A program made the position numbers and the translations under genes. A stretch of 61,079 nucleotides of DNA, counting the filler, from Globobulimina sp. (Eukaryota), in the NCBI GenBank assembly GCA_003354225.1. It is 16 parts of 16 records of this genome, joined end to end, with 100 filler letters (N's around TTAATTAATTAA, not from the genome) between each part and the next. Parts side by side here need not be neighbours in the genome. Positions count along the whole stretch, not along the records: positions 53,538 to 57,258 come from PIVH01002205.1; 15 more parts are not named here. One strand, given 5' to 3'. Below, piece after piece: positions 23,659 to 57,258 of the stretch; position 1 is the stretch's first letter; each line of letters starts with the position of its first letter. The notes under the pieces are model-generated. The model worked only from the letters and a program-made list of their open reading frames with translations. It was not told the DNA's origin and ran no database searches.

Positions 23659-25600
23659 ATGAATAGCTTGTTTCTAATAATAGGTGGTTTATTATTTAAC
23701 TATTGTGTTTGTGATCATTTTGTAGATCCAAAATTATTGGAAATTCCAGAGATCCTTCGTCTTGAAGAATTTGTAGCAAATAATTATTTAATTAATCACA
23801 GTTTTTTACGTTGTTTTGAAAATGGAGAATTTGCAAATATGACAGAAGCCGCCGCAATATTTGCATTAAATCATTACGTATATTCCAAAAATTTCATCAA
23901 TTATCTCCAAACTGTTGCTGCCAAAGTTGAAAATAAAGATGTTAGTAAACCTATTTTAGATAATATCAATGAAGAATTAGGTACCACATTTTCCTCTGTT
24001 TTCTCTTAGATTTGGTCTGCACAAATTTGCACACAATTTGTTTGTATTTATTTTTTGCAAAAAAAACAATTTGTTTCGGCTTACAGGTAATTACGAACAA
24101 GAAGACATTGACCTTTTAACCAAAATTGGAATATCTGAAGAGTGGTATAACAAAATCCCACATAAATATCTCAGCCAACGTTTTTTCGAATCATTAGGCA
24201 TCAATGCAGAGGAAATACCGGTGATAACAATGAGTAACACGGATGTTTATACCACCTCAGACTCCGAACAACATCAAGATTGCGCAATATATGGGCGTAA
24301 AAAACAACGTTTATATCATCCAGACGATTATAGCCAATTACAAGAAGCCGAACTATTCAATCCCGATGGTACTGATACGCCGGGCGAGATATTTACAAAA
24401 TACATGATCCATTTATATAAGAATACAAATGCCTGCGAGTCGCTAGCCATCATTGGCTTTGCCATCGAAGAGACGGTGTCGAAAATCTATGAGTATATTT
24501 GGAACGGATTGCAGCATCATACTCAATTAACAGACGATCAGATTGTCTTTTTTCCGTTACATATATTAATCGACGACGGCCATGCGGATTTATTAAAATT
24601 AGGTTTCAAACATTATATCGTAAACAATGTCTCAATGTGCCAAAACGCTGAAATTATTATTAAAGACGTATTGGAGAAACGAAGCAAAATGTATGACGAT
24701 GTTCGGAGAGAAATTGAAGAAAAACAAGGATCGCAATGTGCGCTCCCTTATGAACACATTGTTACTCCGCATGAGAGACCAACCCGGGACGAGATGGTGG
24801 AGGTAGAGGTGGAAGTGGATGCCGCTGTAATTGAAGCACAGAAATTGACGATAAAATATAATGTATTAGGCGATGCCCGATGGTCATTGATCGATAAGAT
24901 GTCATTGGCAGCGCGTATATTAGCAAAACAAGGCCATGGCGAGACATTATCGGGACAGATTACGTGCAGATACAATTACCGCGACGGCAATGTGACAATG
25001 TTAGTCAATGCCTATGGTAAACCATTAGAATTGGTGAGCAATGAAGATTTCTTAGAAATTGATGGTGATTTGAATGTGCTTAAAGGAGAGGGTTTTGCAA
25101 ATAAGGCGACTCGATTTCATTTCCATGTTTATAATAAAAGGCCAGATATTAAATGCATTGTTCATACACATCCGCCATATTCCAGCGCGTTAGCCATCAG
25201 CGGACAGAAATTGTCCATCTCGCATATGGATACCATGGCGTTGTATGATGATGTACAATATTTAGCGGATTGGCCGGGGATTCCCTTTGGCGACGAGGAA
25301 GGTGATTTAATATCTGGTGTGTTGTCAGACAAATATTGGAGTGCGTTACTAGCGCATCATGGATTAATTGTGGGCGGCACAAGCATTGAAGAAGCAACGT
25401 ACAGAGCGTATTTCTTTGAGAAAGCAGCCCGAATGCAAATAAATGCATTGAGTGCGGTTGGTGGCGATATCAATAAATTGCCGAAAACTAAGGCAGGTTT
25501 ATCGCGCAAAGCTAGAGATTGGAGGATTTCGCAAGGACCTGTTGATGCACATTTTAATGGCTGGGCACAAATTATATTAAAACAAGATTCACCATTTTAA
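23659..25600 (+). CDS. Fusion of heme-oxygenase-like diiron (CADD/PqqC/TenA fold) domain and class II aldolase/adducin domain, with signal-like N-terminus; intron 23981-24086
   Basis: NINEELG...PH, AIEE, FFPLHILIDDGH metal-ligand pattern; FHFHVYNKRPDIKCIVHTHPP, LLAHHG, SIEEA aldolase motifs. Confidence 0.85.
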
Positions 25601-49715: not shown

Positions 49716-51047
49716 TTCAATAAAAGAATGAATAAAAAAATGAATGAGAAGAATATAAATTATATTTATGATAATAAATTATTATTGGAATGGAATAATA
49801 AATGTGTTAGGAGGTGGTTGGTGGAAAATGATTTAAATGTTTTATTATCGTTTGTAAATAATTTATTATTTGATGGGATCCATTTATTATCTTTTAATAA
49901 ACACAGAGCAATGGACATTTTATCAAATAAAGAATTTTTATTGTTTAAAAAAGAAGAATTTTTTGAGAAATTAATAGATTTAAAGATGGAATGTAAGCAG
50001 TTATTGAAAGGAATTGTGAATAATTATGTTGATGATTATATGCTTTTTCTTCCTCCATCGCAAGCAGTCGCGGATAATATATTTGGTCAATTTTGTGGTT
50101 TTATAAAAAAAGCAGGTTTTATTGAAAAGAAGGAGAAGAGAGAGGGACCGGCAGATCTTTTAGAAATGATTGGTTATGATATCAATACAAATGATATGTT
50201 GGTACAAATGAAGGAAGTTAAAATAAAGAAAGTTGAAGAGTTAATAAATGAGGTGTTGCTATATCAGGTGGTCCCGTTAGAGACATATGAATCAATTATA
50301 GGGAAATTGCAGGATTTATCGTGTTTAAAATGGCCGGGAAAGGCTTTTTTGAAGAGATTAAGAGATAAATTATATGAATATATTAAATTATATGGAAGGA
50401 AGAATGTGATTATAATATTGGAAAGCTGGCAAATTTTGGATTTATTGTGGTGGAGGAAGTATATTAGATTAATAAATAAAGCATCAATTTTTGATGTTGT
50501 TGATCCAATATATCCGGAGGATGAAATACATTTTGATGCAGCAACGAATGGATGTCGTGAAGAGGGATGGTGTCCGGCTATCGGTTGTTGGTACAAAAGC
50601 AATTGGTTTGCGATTCCATTGCCGAATGAATTCACAAATGTATATAGATCATTAAGGACTGAGTATGTAAAAGAATTCGCGATCGCTCATTTTGAAATGT
50701 TGGCAATCATCATAGGATTGTTTACATTTAGACGTTTAATTAGGTCGCATACAAAGATTCTGTTAAAAACAGATAACAAACACGTTGAGGCGGTTATAAT
50801 TAATAAAAATTCAGATGACGAATTCTTGCAAGATGGGGTACGGTGGCTTTGCATGTTTGCAGTGGAACAATCTGTAAATTTATACATTGATTATGTCAAT
50901 TCAAAAGCAAATAAAATCCCTGACTTGGCATCAAGGTTTGATATAAAAACATTACTGAAGGTCGCAAGAAATAAATGTAGGAAAAATGGATGGATTTTGT
51001 CAGATTTTTCAAGAAAATGTGAAATTCCAAACATACATGAATGGTAA
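49716..51047 (+). CDS. DIRS-like RT/RNase H, 5' truncated, with a SAM-like insert before YVDD
   Basis: YVDD, LEMIGYDI, SIIGKL, DLLWW, HFDAA, IAHFEMLA, KTDN, NKIPDLASR. Confidence 0.88.
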   Translation, partial: FNKRMNKKMNEKNINYIYDNKLLLEWNNKCVRRWLVENDLNVLLSFVNNLLFDGIHLLSFNKHRAMDILSNKEFLLFKKEEFFEKLIDLKMECKQLLKGIVNNYVDDYMLFLPPSQAVADNIFGQFCGFIKKAGFIEKKEKREGPADLLEMIGYDINTNDMLVQMKEVKIKKVEELINEVLLYQVVPLETYESIIGKLQDLSCLKWPGKAFLKRLRDKLYEYIKLYGRKNVIIILESWQILDLLWWRKYIRLINKASIFDVVDPIYPEDEIHFDAATNGCREEGWCPAIGCWYKSNWFAIPLPNEFTNVYRSLRTEYVKEFAIAHFEMLAIIIGLFTFRRLIRSHTKILLKTDNKHVEAVIINKNSDDEFLQDGVRWLCMFAVEQSVNLYIDYVNSKANKIPDLASRFDIKTLLKVARNKCRKNGWILSDFSRKCEIPNIHEW

Positions 51048-51909
51048 TTGGCATTTGGTGCATTTTAATCCGATTTAACGTAATATCCCATTTATTTATA
51101 ATAATTATATTGATTCGTAATGTGATATTTGATTTTAATGTATTTAGATTATCTGTAATATATTAATAATGAATATTATTATAATAAATGAGTGCATGGA
51201 TTGAATACTGTGTTTTGCAATGGTTTGTATTGTATGGAGCAGTGATTACGTTTAGTTGACGCGGTTTGCTTTCGCGATAACAGACTGACTTAGCATTTGC
51301 ATTTAGAATTAGTTGAAATTGGGTTAATTTGATGAGTAAAATTGATATTCTCTGAATAAATAAATTGAATTTGTATACGTTTAATATATTTTATGTTGAT
51401 TTTCCTTATGTGTTTATCATTTGATTTTGATTAAATTATGCTTGGTTTGCGTTTATTTAATCAAATTTGGCAATTAATCGACCAAAATGCTGTGTTTATC
51501 AATCAAAATCAGTATTTGATTGAATTGTTCATATTGAAAATGATAATGGCAGTTTGATGCATTTGCTATGAAATAATATTATTTATTGAGAGATTTGGAG
51601 TCTTTAGTACCGAGATAGATATTTACTGCCATTTACAATGGATTTGCATAGTTTACAAATAGATAATAGTTAATATAAAGTACTATGATAAGTTGTGAAT
51701 AATATGGCGATATTGCCTGTATTCAGTATAACAGAGTGCATATATCTGAATTTGTGAATAACTGTAGGTATTCAGAGGTTTATTGTACGTGTTTAGGTGT
51801 GGTGTAAAGTGTAGGTGTCATTGTTTTTTACTTTTTTGAAGGGGCTGTTTTTATTTTGAGTTAAAAGTGAAAAACCGTTTTTGTTTCTAGTTTGTGTGGT
51901 TTGTAAAGT

Positions 51910-53271
51910 TTGTATTGTGTGAGATATACAGTTAGAAGCAAACAATATGATCATCCGATATGGTCAAAAGTAAACCCGATTTATAAAGAATTATTATATC
52001 AAGCATTAAATGGGGGAGTAAAGGTGACCACAGAATCAACTTATATGCAGAATTTCCTATATTATTGGAAAACGATGCGAAAATTAGGATTATCGGATGA
52101 GGAAATTTGGACTTTTCCGACTCCGGATGCGTTCCTGCAGCTATATACAATACATTGTTGTATGGTGCAGAAGAAAGTAAATTGTTGGAAGACCATGAGG
52201 TTGAAATATCGCTCGATTGATTTTGTCGCACAGTTATGTGGCGAATTTCAGTCATGGTCGGATAATCCGTCCTTATTCGCATTAACGCAGTATGTTAAAA
52301 AAACGAATCCAGGGAAAGGATCAGACACTTTGCCCGTAACTGCGGATATTTTATTGCAAATCATAAAATATATTTTAGCCTTTAAAGTATACAAAGGTTT
52401 AAGGTTAACGGATTATGAAAAGGAATTGAAGAGTGATTGGTTGTCATTTAAGAAGATATGGACAGATACCAATAGATTGTTTTGGTATATGTTTGCGATG
52501 TCGCTCTTATTTGTAGGTATATTAGGATTAAGGGGGGCGGAGTGTTATGAAAATACAAATAAAGCGTATGTCGGTTATGGCATTTATTTGTCGGACTTGG
52601 ATTTTTATTGGAAATGTGAGGGTATAAATGCAATATATCGAAGTAATGGTTATTCCCTTGCTTTTGATGAATTACATCACGTTCGGATAAGGTTAAGAAA
52701 TTCGAAAGGAAAGACAAAAGGGAAGGATGTAATGTTAAGGATTGGGAGGACGAAGAATAAAATAGATCCGGCGGTGATATTGTATCATATTTATCAAACA
52801 CAAAAGAGAGATTTAAAGAGAATACATAATAAAAGTTTGAAGAATTATTATGTTTTTCAACCAATTAAAAGAAGCTTTAAATTAAGAACGGTTAAAAAAT
52901 ATTGGAAGAAAGTTATATTAGAAATGGGTTTCTGGGAACCGCAGAGATATAGGTTTCATGGCTTAAGAAAGGGTTTTGCCACAACCTTGCAACAGAAGGG
53001 AGTGCCAATGAGTTTGATTGCATTTGCAGGGAGATGGAAATTGACGGCAGCAATATATAAATATTTAATACATACACAAAGGGATTTGATTGCGGTGGCG
53101 AATATATTTATTTATGGTAAAAATAAAAATAGTGTTGCTATTGATATGGATGCAGCGGAATGTGATTTGGTGAGAGAATTTCCTAATAATAAGGATAAAT
53201 TCTCGATGGAGTTTATGAATAAATATCAGGAGAGATTATGTGAATATGAAATTGATTTAAATATTGGGTAA
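51910..53271 (+). CDS. Tyrosine recombinase of a DIRS-like retrotransposon
   Basis: GLRGAE, RNSKG, FHGLRKG, AGRW, YKYL; intact catalytic set. Confidence 0.9.
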   Translation: MYCVRYTVRSKQYDHPIWSKVNPIYKELLYQALNGGVKVTTESTYMQNFLYYWKTMRKLGLSDEEIWTFPTPDAFLQLYTIHCCMVQKKVNCWKTMRLKYRSIDFVAQLCGEFQSWSDNPSLFALTQYVKKTNPGKGSDTLPVTADILLQIIKYILAFKVYKGLRLTDYEKELKSDWLSFKKIWTDTNRLFWYMFAMSLLFVGILGLRGAECYENTNKAYVGYGIYLSDLDFYWKCEGINAIYRSNGYSLAFDELHHVRIRLRNSKGKTKGKDVMLRIGRTKNKIDPAVILYHIYQTQKRDLKRIHNKSLKNYYVFQPIKRSFKLRTVKKYWKKVILEMGFWEPQRYRFHGLRKGFATTLQQKGVPMSLIAFAGRWKLTAAIYKYLIHTQRDLIAVANIFIYGKNKNSVAIDMDAAECDLVREFPNNKDKFSMEFMNKYQERLCEYEIDLNIG

Positions 53272-53537
53272 TTAATCTATAGGTGTTTCTGTTTTATTAT
53301 TTTACGATGTGGAGTTTATTTCATATATTTAATAGTAATTTGTATATAATACAATGTATATTGATAATGAACGAGGTGGAGATTGGTATAGGTTTGGTAT
53401 TGTGGTATTTGGTGTTATTGTTAATATGTATTATGTTNNNNNNNNNNNNNNNNNNNNNNNNNNNNNNNNNNNNNNNNNNNNTTAATTAATTAANNNNNNN
53501 NNNNNNNNNNNNNNNNNNNNNNNNNNNNNNNNNNNNN

Positions 53538-53633
53538 TAAGGACGCACCAATCGTGGTGGCAAACCCTGCAGCAAATGTTAACAGAATTGCTAAATTAAT
53601 ATTTTCTTGGGGATGAGCATCGGAATCAGTCAT
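53538..53633 (-). CDS. 5' end of a ZIP/ZupT-like metal transporter
   Basis: NINLAILLTFAAGFATTIGAS matches the first TM helix of ZupT-type proteins; only 32 codons visible. Confidence 0.6.
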
Positions 53634-53725
53634 ATTTTGTGTTGGGAATTGATATTGGCAAAATAAGTAGTGAGTTGAGTTAAGTTTTTTTTTCAACACA
53701 CAATTCACGAAAAACTCCTTCCGAA

Positions 53726-56700
53726 ATGAACTATATTATGGCGATTGTGATATCGTCATTGGTAACATCCACATTACCCACATTTATTGAACCGCCACAA
53801 GTTGAAATATTGGCAGGAACATCATACGATTTCTCAATCGATTATTGCACAATTTCAATACCACCATATATATCAACCATGAATGCACATTGTTACTGTT
53901 TCTATAATCCAACTACAGAAATATCATTTAATTGCAGCGTACCTGGACCAACATTTATATTCTATGCAGGAGACAAAGTATCAATGACATGGCACAATCG
54001 CATGAGTGGTGATTCAATATCTGATTCATCATATTTTAATAAACAAAAGGACTTAGATATAACCAATATACATACACATGGACTTCGTTAAGTAAATGCG
54101 TAACTCCATAACCCCACTAACCCCACACATTTGAAACAGATATAGGTCCCGATCAAGATGCGATATCTCATAACATACTGCCTGGATACAGTCATACATA
54201 TAAATATAGCGTCCCGTCCTACCATTATCCAGGAACACATTGGTTACATGCACAGCATCACGGAAGTGCGTCATTTCAAGTAATATCCGGTTTATTTGCT
54301 GCATTGTTGATCAAATATTCAGAGGATTACAGCTATCAATTAGGTGATATCGATGATAGTTTAATGAATATGAAAGAGAATGTATTGTTATTCCATTGGT
54401 ATTATATAATAACAACCGCGATATGTAATTGCAGCAACACTACGGAATGGAAAACATATTTTTATTATCCGCCACAATTCAATGTTTCTGATTGTATTTC
54501 AGGGAAAGAATGTTTCCAAGTTTTCTCGCATTGCCATGAATATTGTTCCATGCCTGAAACACAACGCTTATTATCTGGTTATACATATAACATACAATCC
54601 GATTACAACAATAACTTTCAATTATTTGTTGTGAATGGACAGTTCGAACCTATTATTAAAATACGCGTGAATCGATTTCGTAGATTACGATTTATTAATG
54701 CCATGACGCAGTATTATATACAATATAAATTTCCTACCTCGCACTGCGAATGGTATATAATTGCAATTGATGGCATATTTTTATATAACAATGAAGTAAG
54801 AAGTATTAATTCTGCTCCTTATTTCGGTGAATATTTATTGCCATCCGGAGGGAGATTAGATGTGATTGTTAAATGTGATATGCTCGGCACTCATAGCATT
54901 GTGACGTCAGAGAACACAGAGATTGATGCTGATTTATTTAACATTGGGAGAGCACCCGCTGGCTATACATTATTTAAAATCTACATAACTGCTGATGGTG
55001 AGGATGTGGTTAGAGATGTACCCGAATCATATCCGGTGAGACCAAATTATTTAACGGATTTAAGTGAGAAAGAAATCAATATTTGTGGTTGTAATACGTA
55101 TAACAGAAATAATAATAATACCGGTATTATCACATGGAATGACACTGAATGTGGCATCGTATTTAATATGAAAAACAACCATAATGTGAATGGTCTTGTT
55201 TTTAATCCAAATAAACCGTCCACTGTTAAGTATTTATAACCAATATTTGCGTATGTTTGTTTTTGTATCTTTGTAGATATTTGCCAGAGTGTGAAACGAA
55301 CACAAAATTTATATTTGATGACATTCGAATTCCAAAACTCTGAAATCAAGCAAATGGTTTCGTTTCCCACTCTGTTATTGCAGTGTGTTTTGTGTGTCTA
55401 TAGTCATTGGAATACGGTCAAGTATACGAATTTACATTAATTCCCCATATGCACGCATACCATCAACGCATATTTCCGTTCCAAATGCAAACGGATATTG
55501 GAATGAATGGCTTCCAGGCTCAAGCCGGTGATTACCATGATACCATTGGTGGGCCCAAAAATAAACAATTTAAATTTCGAAGCTATCCAATTGATTTTAG
55601 CGGACCGCAAATTATTCAATGTCATCAATTAACACACCAAGATATGGGAATGATGGCTTATATCGATATATTACAACCACATCAGACATGTAATGCCTAC
55701 ACTGGCGAAATCATTGGGAATCCCACCATGAAACCAACACCGATTCCCACTCAAAACCCTACGTTATCACCAACCAAAATACCAACAAACACACCAACCC
55801 CTCAACCAACTGGAGCACCCACATTAAGACCTACAAGCAAACCAAGTTAATTTCGGATTTGTTTATCTATATATTATATTTTGCGGAGTTTTTTTATTAT
55901 TTGTTAGCACGATCACCACTGCGCGATATTTGTCCAATTGAGCCAGGCATATACATGGATTTCATCGTATTATTTGACAATTCGTGCGGATTAAGTGCCG
56001 ATACTGGTGATGATTTATTAGAATTTGTAGGAGAAGTTATATCCGTTATATTAGCGGACACAAATAAAACCAGAGTACAAACTATGGCCACCAGACCCGT
56101 TGGGGCGCCCGATATTATTGTCGTATTTGGCAATACAAATTTACAAAATGATCCGGTCCGATATGTTCAAACTGTACGGGAATTTGGGGAATGTACAGAT
56201 GGTGGAGCTGGTTCAACTGATTTACTGCATGCACTTCATGATTCTTTCTTATATTTTGATGTGTCAGACAATAGAATTGATAAAATAATAATAATCAGCG
56301 CCTGTCAAGATAACAGAGACGCGATATGTGATGAAATGGCACATGAATTATCACAGCATGATATTGATTCATATGTTATAAACTTTATGGACTTATCCGA
56401 TGCAAGCAATGTGATTACGGCTCCACAAACAGATAATTATTTAAAATGTGTGGCAGATTATGATGACACTCGTGTTTGTTCCGGTGAATTGGGACATGAT
56501 GATGACGAAATTATTGATAATTGTTTGGTGTCTCATGTTTGTAGTGTGCCTACGAAAACACCCAGTCTTCTTCCATCCACACAACCAACATTTCAGCCTA
56601 CAACAAAACCAACCACGCAGCCATCGGTGCCACCGACAAAACCACCATCAAAACAGCTTTCAATTTCACCTACAAAACAGCCATCGAAGCAACCATCAAT

Positions 56701-57258
56701 TTCGCCTACAAAACAGCCATCATTTTCACCTACAAAACAGCCTTCAATTTCACCTACAAAACAACCCTCGATATCACCAACGATTTCACCTACAAAACAA
56801 CCATCAATTTCGCCGACAAAACTGCCCTCCATTTCGCCTACAAAACAACCCTCGATGTCACCTACAAAAACACCAACGATTTCACCTACAAAACAATCCA
56901 CAAATAAACCCACACAAAATCCAACGCAGTCCCGAACATACCGACCGACTGCAGAGCCTACTGTTGGGCCAAATGGATCCCCAACAACGTTACTGTTACC
57001 ACCAACAAGTTTTGTTTTGTTTGCAGTGGCTATATAAAAATATGTCTGTTTTTTTTTAGAAGCAAGTGGTGAATGTTTTGTTGGCGAAGCATGTCAAGAT
57101 ACATTGGATTGTTGCATGGATGATGTTGAGGGGGGAAGAGGAATCACATGTTCTTGCTATACCAAAATGAGTGTAACTGTGGAGGACAGATTTTGTTGCA
57201 TTTTGAAAGGATATGATGGCTGTATGTCCGACAATGATTGCTGTAAAGTCCGAACATT
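53726..57258 (+). CDS. Multicopper-oxidase-like protein with PT linker, vWA domain, SPTKQP repeats and Cys-rich tail; introns 54087-54139, 55225-55403, 55846-55907, 57009-57059; 3' truncated
   Basis: TNIHTHGLH, GTHWLHAQHHG, HAYHQR, QCHQLTHQDMGMM; DFIVLFDNS vWA start; phase-compatible GT-AG introns. Confidence 0.85.
56550..56930 (+). repeat. 24-bp coding repeats (SISPTKQP), mucin-like stalk
   Basis: Repeated TCACCTACAAAACAGCCATCAATT-like units. Confidence 0.85.

Follow-up and report, generated by a model that had tools for sequence, protein, structure and literature searches.

In the multicopper oxidase (MCO) CueO, one copper of the type 3 (T3) pair is coordinated by His143, His448 and His499, as stated in passages of PMC6155172, and the homologous set of Fet3p, H128/H418/H483, is assigned to the T3-alpha copper in the legend of Fig. 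2 of PMC4203857. Glu506 of CueO, which corresponds to Glu498 of CotA, is an acid implicated in proton transfer, according to parts of PMC2944330. Here we describe a gene for a predicted MCO-family protein in which these four positions are occupied by Gln, Arg, Gln and Gln, respectively, found in a stretch of 61,079 nucleotides (nt) from the Globobulimina sp. assembly GCA_003354225.1 (hereafter, the window). The protein under study is the spliced product that starts at position 53726, in the piece of the window spanning 53538-57258 (record PIVH01002205.1), and its residue numbers count along the spliced frame.

For Fet3p, sections of PMC10107611 describe a peroxide intermediate that arises by oxidation of the type 2 (T2) and T3-beta coppers, helped by an Asp at the T2/T3-beta edge; decay of the peroxide by O-O cleavage takes a proton from a T3 Glu/Asp, together with electrons that one computed pathway draws from T2 and T3-alpha. 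Furthermore, pseudo-MCOs with essential non-oxidase roles exist: MCORP of insects is essential despite having no oxidase activity, and most of the ligands are gone from SKU5 and Bp10 of plants (passages of PMC4203857), while bacterial SufI has the MCO fold (parts of PMC2661564).

In this work, we mapped the copper ligands of the Globobulimina protein onto CueO, compared its codons with contigs from public sequencing runs, and placed it among its homologues. Our results show that the ligands of a single copper have been replaced, and suggest that the remaining copper sites are under constraint and that the product may be a three-copper derivative of a secreted oxidase.

Results

Replacement of the ligands of one copper

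As reference we used E. coli K-12 CueO, translated from NC_000913.3 and aligned to the family profile by hidden Markov model (HMM). Translation of the exons gave the four copper motifs HTH, WLHAQHHG, HAYHQR and QCHQLTHQDMGM, as they had been read in the first-pass annotation of this DNA. The CueO residues H101, H103, D112, H141, H145, H443, H446, C500, H501, H505, D507 and M510 are unchanged. Thus, the protein keeps the type 1 (T1) set H499, C555, H560 and M565 (CueO H443, C500, H505 and M510), the T2 set H116 and H502 (CueO H101 and H446), and the T3-beta triad H118, H157 and H556 (CueO H103, H141 and H501), that is, the Cys, seven of the ten His, the axial Met and the T2 Asp. The T3-alpha triad (CueO H143, H448 and H499) is replaced by Q159, R504 and Q554. 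As for the second-sphere acids, D127 (CueO D112) is kept, and the position of E506 is taken by Q561; D507 of CueO is matched by D562. All four changes are single-nucleotide steps (CAY to CAR, CAC to CGC, and GAA to CAA).

The first-pass annotation had proposed that the missing His constitute the full ligand set of one T3 copper and that the missing Glu is the proton-donor acid E506, and in both cases the CueO mapping agrees with the literature (passages of PMC6155172 and of PMC2944330, respectively); its further claim, that the T1, T2 and other T3 ligands are all retained, was confirmed by the HMM alignment with CueO. In a phmmer search against the PDB, the motifs aligned with WYHPH.H., HPFHIHG and HCHILEHEDLGMM of the Campylobacter (3zx1), Thermus (2xu9) and Pediococcus oxidases.

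The same codons in contigs of separate studies

Contigs from X1, X5, X6 and X8, which are public sequencing runs belonging to four different studies, were compared with the window; X1 and X5 are of kind '?', and X6 and X8 of kind 'RNA?', which is a guess. The differences between contigs and window that are listed amount to 40 of 170 and come from mixed runs. Record 6 of X5 (54171-54908) differs from the window at two places and record 7 (55404-55756) at four, and all six lie away from the four codons in question, which are therefore identical in X5. Record 2 of X1, a run from a different study than X5, confirms the Arg codon. The Q/R/Q/Q pattern is not a sequencing error: the X5 contigs carry no His at these sites, and the original observation stands.

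Canonical ligands in the relatives

An exhaustive HMMER search with exon 2 recovered 1287 proteins at E ≤ 0.001, to which word-index searches added P0005 and P0156. The closest relatives are unnamed eukaryotic proteins with an MCO part and a PT linker, from eukprot and ENA records, with identities to the studied protein of 65-66% (P0005), 61-62% (P0006), 59-60% (P0007), 58% (P0156) and about 35-39% (P0008). The word-index searches returned only P0005, P0156, P0006 and P0007, and nothing above 66% identity; a metagenome scan with exon 2 yielded just two distant loci, with 41% identity over 35 residues, which were left out of the comparison. In a maximum-likelihood tree of exon 2, P0005 is sister to the studied protein, with branches of 0.225 and 0.32, the latter (that of the studied protein) being about 1.4 times longer. 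P0005 is also laid out in the same way, its oxidase part being followed by the PT linker and then the second domain.

When 152 homologues were aligned with hmmalign, the three T3-alpha columns were occupied by His in 140 of 140, 120 of 120 and 117 of 117 covering sequences, and Q/R/Q/Q was found in the studied copy alone. P0005, P0156, P0006 and P0008 are canonical at every motif that they cover (P0007 covers none), so that scattered ligand loss, of the kind that would point to decay in the subfamily, was not seen in these close relatives. A further possibility, that the His next to the substituted position in AQHHG compensates for the loss, does not hold, as the same pair of His is present in canonical relatives (HAHHHG in P0005; His at +2 in 135 of 140). 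At the E506 column, the homologues covering it have Glu in 91 of 115, Ser in 13, Ala in 6 and Gln in 2; because Glu is found in only 91 of 115 and Gln occurs in two, the E-to-Q change is less remarkable than the losses of His.

Departures at any ligand column were limited to P0009, P0066 and P0110, and none of these falls in the T3-alpha columns. In P0066 the T3-beta ligands are all gone (Y, G and A in their places), along with two T1 ligands, and the whole T3-alpha triad is kept; P0110 lacks one T2 His, two T1 ligands and two of its three T3-beta ligands, and its T3-alpha triad is likewise kept. The pattern in these two proteins is complementary to the loss in the studied protein.

As for paralogues, tblastn with the exons and with P0005 found no second gene copy within the 61-kb window. 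The X1 and X5 contigs switch at 54816, 54876 and 55994 into similar coding sequence (e.g., ...DDDCDDLLE... in the second domain), and these loose ends point to one or more additional paralogues in the same organisms.

Constraint on the remaining sites

Conservation was assessed on 82 homologues picked for having all four motifs, in which the ligand columns are thereby invariant by construction; the unbiased counts are those of the 152-homologue alignment given above. The studied protein keeps 53 of the 61 columns conserved at ≥80%, including all invariant non-ligand columns. Besides the four positions in question, the changed columns are Y to L and G to A (at both of which the close subfamily differs too), P to A beside the T1 His, and W to Y. 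A ninth column was flagged only because the translation of exon 1 ran on into the intron; the spliced codon (C/AT) encodes His.

Near-identical contigs show 33 listed coding differences from the window, 17 synonymous and 16 non-synonymous. Of these, 13 synonymous and 9 non-synonymous ones fall in codons 1-590, giving a ratio of non-synonymous to synonymous differences per site (pN/pS) of 0.19-0.26 (kappa 1-4; one-sided binomial p 0.0002-0.0016), and the linker and repeat part, with 4 synonymous and 7 non-synonymous, is indistinguishable from neutral. Under uniform-rate decay of the 11 ligands, the likelihood of losing three of three at one site and none of eight elsewhere is ≤0.0016. The low pN/pS and the retention of 53 of 61 conserved columns therefore make neutral decay unlikely, and, taken as a whole, these results argue that the oxidase part, specifically its other three copper sites, is still under selection.

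That the loss was non-random, as the first-pass annotation had suggested, is borne out by this constraint, by the absence of any non-His residue at the T3-alpha columns among the 152 homologues, and by combinatorics: the 11 His/Cys ligands give 165 possible triplets, and just 2-3 of these are complete three-ligand copper sets.

Fold and family membership

The fold was modelled on the sister protein P0005, with a 40-sequence alignment, as a stand-in for the studied protein. The model has a predicted local distance difference test (pLDDT) score >90 over most of residues ~70-620 and <50 in the PT linker and second domain. In Foldseek, it matched the Thermus laccase (TMt 0.78-0.82), the Campylobacter oxidase and many CueO entries (~0.72-0.80), as well as SufI (2uxv, rank 49); for 2xu9, 9cpm and CueO entries, TMt was 0.75-0.82. 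Since the studied exons align end to end with P0005, the model supports three cupredoxin domains in the studied protein as a prediction. The best PDB matches by phmmer were 3zx1 (E=1.7e-9) and 2xu9. Pfam searches, run exon by exon and thus with the domains split, gave Cu-oxidase_2 for exon 3 (22.4 bits, cut-off 20.4), a sub-threshold Cu-oxidase_3 for exon 1 (16.9 bits, cut-off 21) and no match for exon 2, and the ESM Atlas label is 'multicopper oxidase'. By descent and fold, then, the product is, as predicted from these comparisons, a three-domain oxidase of the CueO/Thermus type that fails the ten-His signature at one copper.

A copper nitrite reductase was also considered and rejected, as the fold and the best matches are those of three-domain CueO-type oxidases. 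Copper nitrite reductases have two-domain subunits assembled in trimers, with a T1 copper and a T2 copper between subunits.

Gene structure and transcription

The window is made of 16 pieces, each of ~3.72 kb, joined every ~3824 bases (3728-57358) by spacers of the form N44-TTAATTAATTAA-N44. Adjacent pieces do not carry on the genes of one another, and the context of the studied gene is thus limited to 53538-57258. The features of the gene are listed in Table 1.

Once four GT..AG introns are removed, the gene reads as one frame of 1062 codons with zero stops, running off the end of the piece; unspliced, the region gives four separate open reading frames (ORFs) under translation table 11. The earlier description of an intact ORF therefore holds for the absence of stops in the spliced frame, and does not hold for a single continuous ORF. 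P0005 (929 amino acids, aa) aligns by tblastn without gaps across the junctions HTHGL/H, PTT/SLEYG and KPT/RSP. An X5 contig begins at 53708 beside adaptor sequence, 18 nt upstream of the ATG, as a cDNA end. As the spliced contigs are most simply explained by mRNA, we infer that the gene is transcribed and spliced. The hydrophobic N-terminus is a probable signal peptide, and secretion is predicted.

Three of the four introns (those opening at 54087, 55225 and 55846) begin with GTTAA (GTTAAGT twice and GTTAATT once) and not GTAAGT. The relatives P0006 and P0007, which derive from genomic contigs, terminate in ...TVK where intron 2 lies, the ending that read-through of the same GTTAAG donor would give.

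Table 1. Features of the studied gene and positions of its copper motifs and replaced codons in the window.
Feature	Position	Strand	Description
Exon 1	53726..54086	+	Start codon, hydrophobic N-terminus, first part of cupredoxin domain 1, motif 1 HTH; ends in phase 1 (C/AT = His121); joint 54086>54140 in contigs
Intron 1	54087..54139	+	53 nt, GTTAAGT..AG; skipped by a spliced X1 contig; spanned by the P0005 alignment
Exon 2	54140..55224	+	D127 (54157-59), motif 2 WLHAQHHG with H157 and Q159, Cys-rich middle domain
Intron 2	55225..55403	+	179 nt, GTTAAGT..AG; joint 55224>55404 in X1, X5, X6 and X8; P0005 aligns PTT/SLEYG across it
Exon 3	55404..55845	+	Motif 3 HAYHQR, motif 4 QCHQLTHQDMGMM, then PT-rich linker
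Intron 3	55846..55907	+	62 nt, GTTAATT..AG; joint 55845>55908 in X1, X5, X6 and X8
Exon 4	55908..57008	+	Domain of ~200 aa, alpha/beta-looking, then mucin-like 24-nt repeats at ~56630-56930
Intron 4	57009..57059	+	51 nt, GT..AG; joint 57008>57060 in X1
Exon 5, incomplete	57060..57258	+	Cys-rich region cut by the end of the piece; spacer from 57259
Motif 1	54071..54079		HTH
Motif 2	54241..54264		WLHAQHHG
Motif 3	55452..55469		HAYHQR
Motif 4	55617..55652		QCHQLTHQDMGM
Q159	54253..54255	+	CAG; corresponds to CueO H143
R504	55467..55469	+	CGC; corresponds to CueO H448
Q554	55617..55619	+	CAA; corresponds to CueO H499
Q561	55638..55640	+	CAA; corresponds to CueO E506

C-terminal parts

Downstream of the oxidase part, the PT/mucin-like repeats are recognised by Pfam PT (E=1e-16), the 24-nt units encoding 8-aa repeats of the ISPTKQPS type. 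The second domain is 62% homologous to residues 722-921 of P0005. The MIDAS (metal-ion-dependent adhesion site) motif of vWA domains is DxSxS, and the studied domain reads DNSCG where this metal site would be. Pfam VWA gave no match at E ≤ 10 for 55910-56548, the second domain of P0005 scored below threshold against it (17.3 bits, cut-off 23.8), and no vWA structures were among the PDB sequence matches for this domain, which is possibly vWA-like. Of the display on vWA and mucin-like stalks that had been proposed at first, the repeats are thus real, and the vWA assignment is weak, with a sub-threshold score in the sister and an altered metal-site motif.

In-frame length changes were seen between the window and the contigs, with 12 nt left out in X6 (55788-55804, in the PT linker) and 144 nt skipped in X8 (56655-56800, in the mucin-like repeats), as expected of repeat arrays.

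Other features of the window

The window has a G+C content of ~30-39%, and its ORFs include eukaryotic domains such as Rrn7/TAF1B, ubiquitin, SelO and CNNM. Within the same piece as the studied gene, 53538-53633 (- strand) holds the first 32 aa of a gene that runs in the opposite direction; this N-terminus includes a hydrophobic stretch and is truncated at the spacer. The fragment had no match in Pfam, and a resemblance to ZIP metal transporters was unsupported. A 454-aa ORF at 51907-53268 (+ strand), in a eukaryotic piece, carries a tyrosine-recombinase (Phage_integrase) domain (E=1.4e-7) and may belong to a Crypton- or DIRS-like mobile element. The pieces within 50001-54000 show an unusually high GC skew (0.28-0.37). 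Further, a single ORF at 23981-25597 (+ strand) combines a weak match to Haem_oxygenas_2, an iron-containing redox enzyme, with a strong class II aldolase/adducin domain.

Discussion

The reading that we favour, to which we assign a probability of roughly 55%, is that the gene encodes a functional and selectively maintained three-copper (T1, T2 and T3-beta) derivative that would be unable to reduce O2 by four electrons. From its predicted features, the product is best read as a secreted, stalk-borne derivative of the eukaryotic CueO/Thermus-type MCO family that probably cannot turn O2 into water. The T3-alpha copper would no longer be bound, and the guanidinium of Arg504 may fill its place; with neither a coupled binuclear T3 pair nor a complete trinuclear cluster, four-electron O2 reduction would be lost. 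Electrons from T1 could still reach the T2/T3-beta edge via the retained Cys-His link, and oxygen chemistry would then either end with peroxide, after two electrons, or be absent; if absent, the protein might store or relay electrons or copper on the surface of the cell. Compared with the Fet3p cycle, the parts that serve the first step are kept and those that serve cleavage are lost, which fits oxygen chemistry halted at two electrons, or none with O2.

A more specific proposal, which we draw from that analogy and regard as tentative and rather doubtful, is a 'half-cycle' MCO, in which substrate would be oxidised at T1 and H2O2, instead of water, released at the cell surface, the Arg in place of a ligand helping to hold or protonate peroxide. 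If true, two-electron oxygen chemistry would be seen here for the first time in a natural descendant of the MCOs.

Several points weigh against a maintained three-copper derivative. None of the four runs is recorded as RNA, and transcription is deduced from the spliced contigs. The pN/pS values come from 33 listed differences in mixed runs, among which chimeric or paralogous contigs are possible. The Q/R/Q/Q pattern occurs in one lineage only, the X6 and X8 contigs being 90-99% identical with 40 of 170 differences listed, and the Glu of the E506 column is not invariant in the family. The structural support comes from the model of P0005 and not from the studied protein. Further, Gln can ligate copper, and single His-to-Gln variants of Fet3p reportedly still load the cluster; the loss of the T3-alpha copper is therefore inferred only, and so, from the sequence, are the copper content and activity of the protein.

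Of the other explanations, the one that survives best, which we nonetheless hold to be unlikely, is a non-redox pseudo-oxidase, in which the oxidase fold, carried on a mucin-like stalk, would serve only for binding or as a scaffold, in the manner of MCORP, SKU5 and FtsP/SufI, and the leftover ligands would persist only through the stabilising effect of bound copper on the fold, or for want of time to lose them. The existence of essential proteins of this kind, the loss of several ligands by P0066 and P0110 within the same broad family, and the PT/mucin repeats and Cys-rich tail, which fit a surface or adhesive protein, are all in its favour. However, the His-Cys-His triad and most other ligands are missing from the known pseudo-MCOs, according to passages of PMC4203857, whereas this protein keeps the Cys, seven of ten His, the axial Met and the Asp near T2; moreover, the conservation of all eight other ligands alongside the loss of three of three at one site would be unlikely without selection on the remaining copper sites.

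We consider it improbable that the gene was recently inactivated and is on its way to becoming a pseudogene, a redundant paralogue having lost one ligand, after which the other two ligands of the same copper drifted and the rest have not yet been hit. The further paralogue indicated by the loose ends of the X1 and X5 contigs, the single-nucleotide nature of all four changes and the longer branch relative to the sister would suit such a course, but the reading frame is unbroken across five or more exons whose splice sites work, spliced contigs occur in the runs of four studies, and neither the pN/pS of ~0.2 in the oxidase part, nor the 53 of 61 conserved columns kept, nor the uniform-decay likelihood is what it would lead one to expect.

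Very improbable, in our view, is an enzyme that is still a four-copper oxidase, in which the two Gln and a neighbouring His (HAQHHG) rebuild the T3 site and another acid delivers protons. Gln is a copper ligand in some cupredoxins, two His directly follow Q159, and 24 of 115 homologues, presumably working, lack Glu at the E506 column; against this, the pair of His is equally present in canonical relatives and represents no compensating novelty, the third ligand is replaced by a cationic Arg, and no change at the T3-alpha columns is tolerated in any of the 152 homologues. Finally, although chimeric joins do occur among the short-read contigs of this gene family, an origin of the four odd codons in an error of assembly or sequencing, or in the fusion of paralogues into a chimera, has a probability close to negligible and is already largely refuted by the X5 and X1 contigs, the former carrying identical codons at all four places in a separate study and the latter the Arg codon, with the changes spread over two exons.

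Should three coppers truly be bound, a maintained derivative of this kind would offer a natural test of the division of labour within the trinuclear cluster, and an example of the stepwise conversion of an oxidase to another role.

The studied protein resembles the CueO, Thermus thermophilus laccase and Campylobacter McoC type in the order of its motifs, the T1 site with axial Met, the T2 site, the T3-beta triad, and the counterparts of D112 and D507. It differs from this type in lacking the H143/H448/H499 triad and E506, in being eukaryotic and having introns, and in its Cys-rich middle domain, PT linkers, extra alpha/beta domain, mucin-like repeats and Cys-rich tail, with no Met-rich segment. 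With P0005 it shares the whole architecture through the second domain; unlike P0005, P0156, P0006 and P0008, its ligand columns are not canonical.

In the open-access literature we found no natural MCO with this pattern of ligand loss. The Fet3p variants of the Solomon group are reportedly single His-to-Gln laboratory changes, whereas this natural protein replaces three ligands and a carboxylate. In both cases, the same asymmetry between T2/T3-beta and T3-alpha is at issue (sections of PMC10107611). As in MCORP, SKU5/Bp10 and FtsP (SufI), an MCO fold has lost copper ligands and the protein has been retained (passages of PMC4203857 and PMC2661564), and the studied protein is not orthologous to any of these. 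Known ligand-losing MCOs (MCORP, SKU5, FtsP) lost the Cys and most His, with MCORP and SKU5 keeping only two T2 His, as passages of PMC4203857 describe, a loss of another kind and far more extensive; here, the ligand set of one copper and the proton-donor acid are gone, the T1 site and the Cys-His link are intact, and the remainder is apparently under selection.

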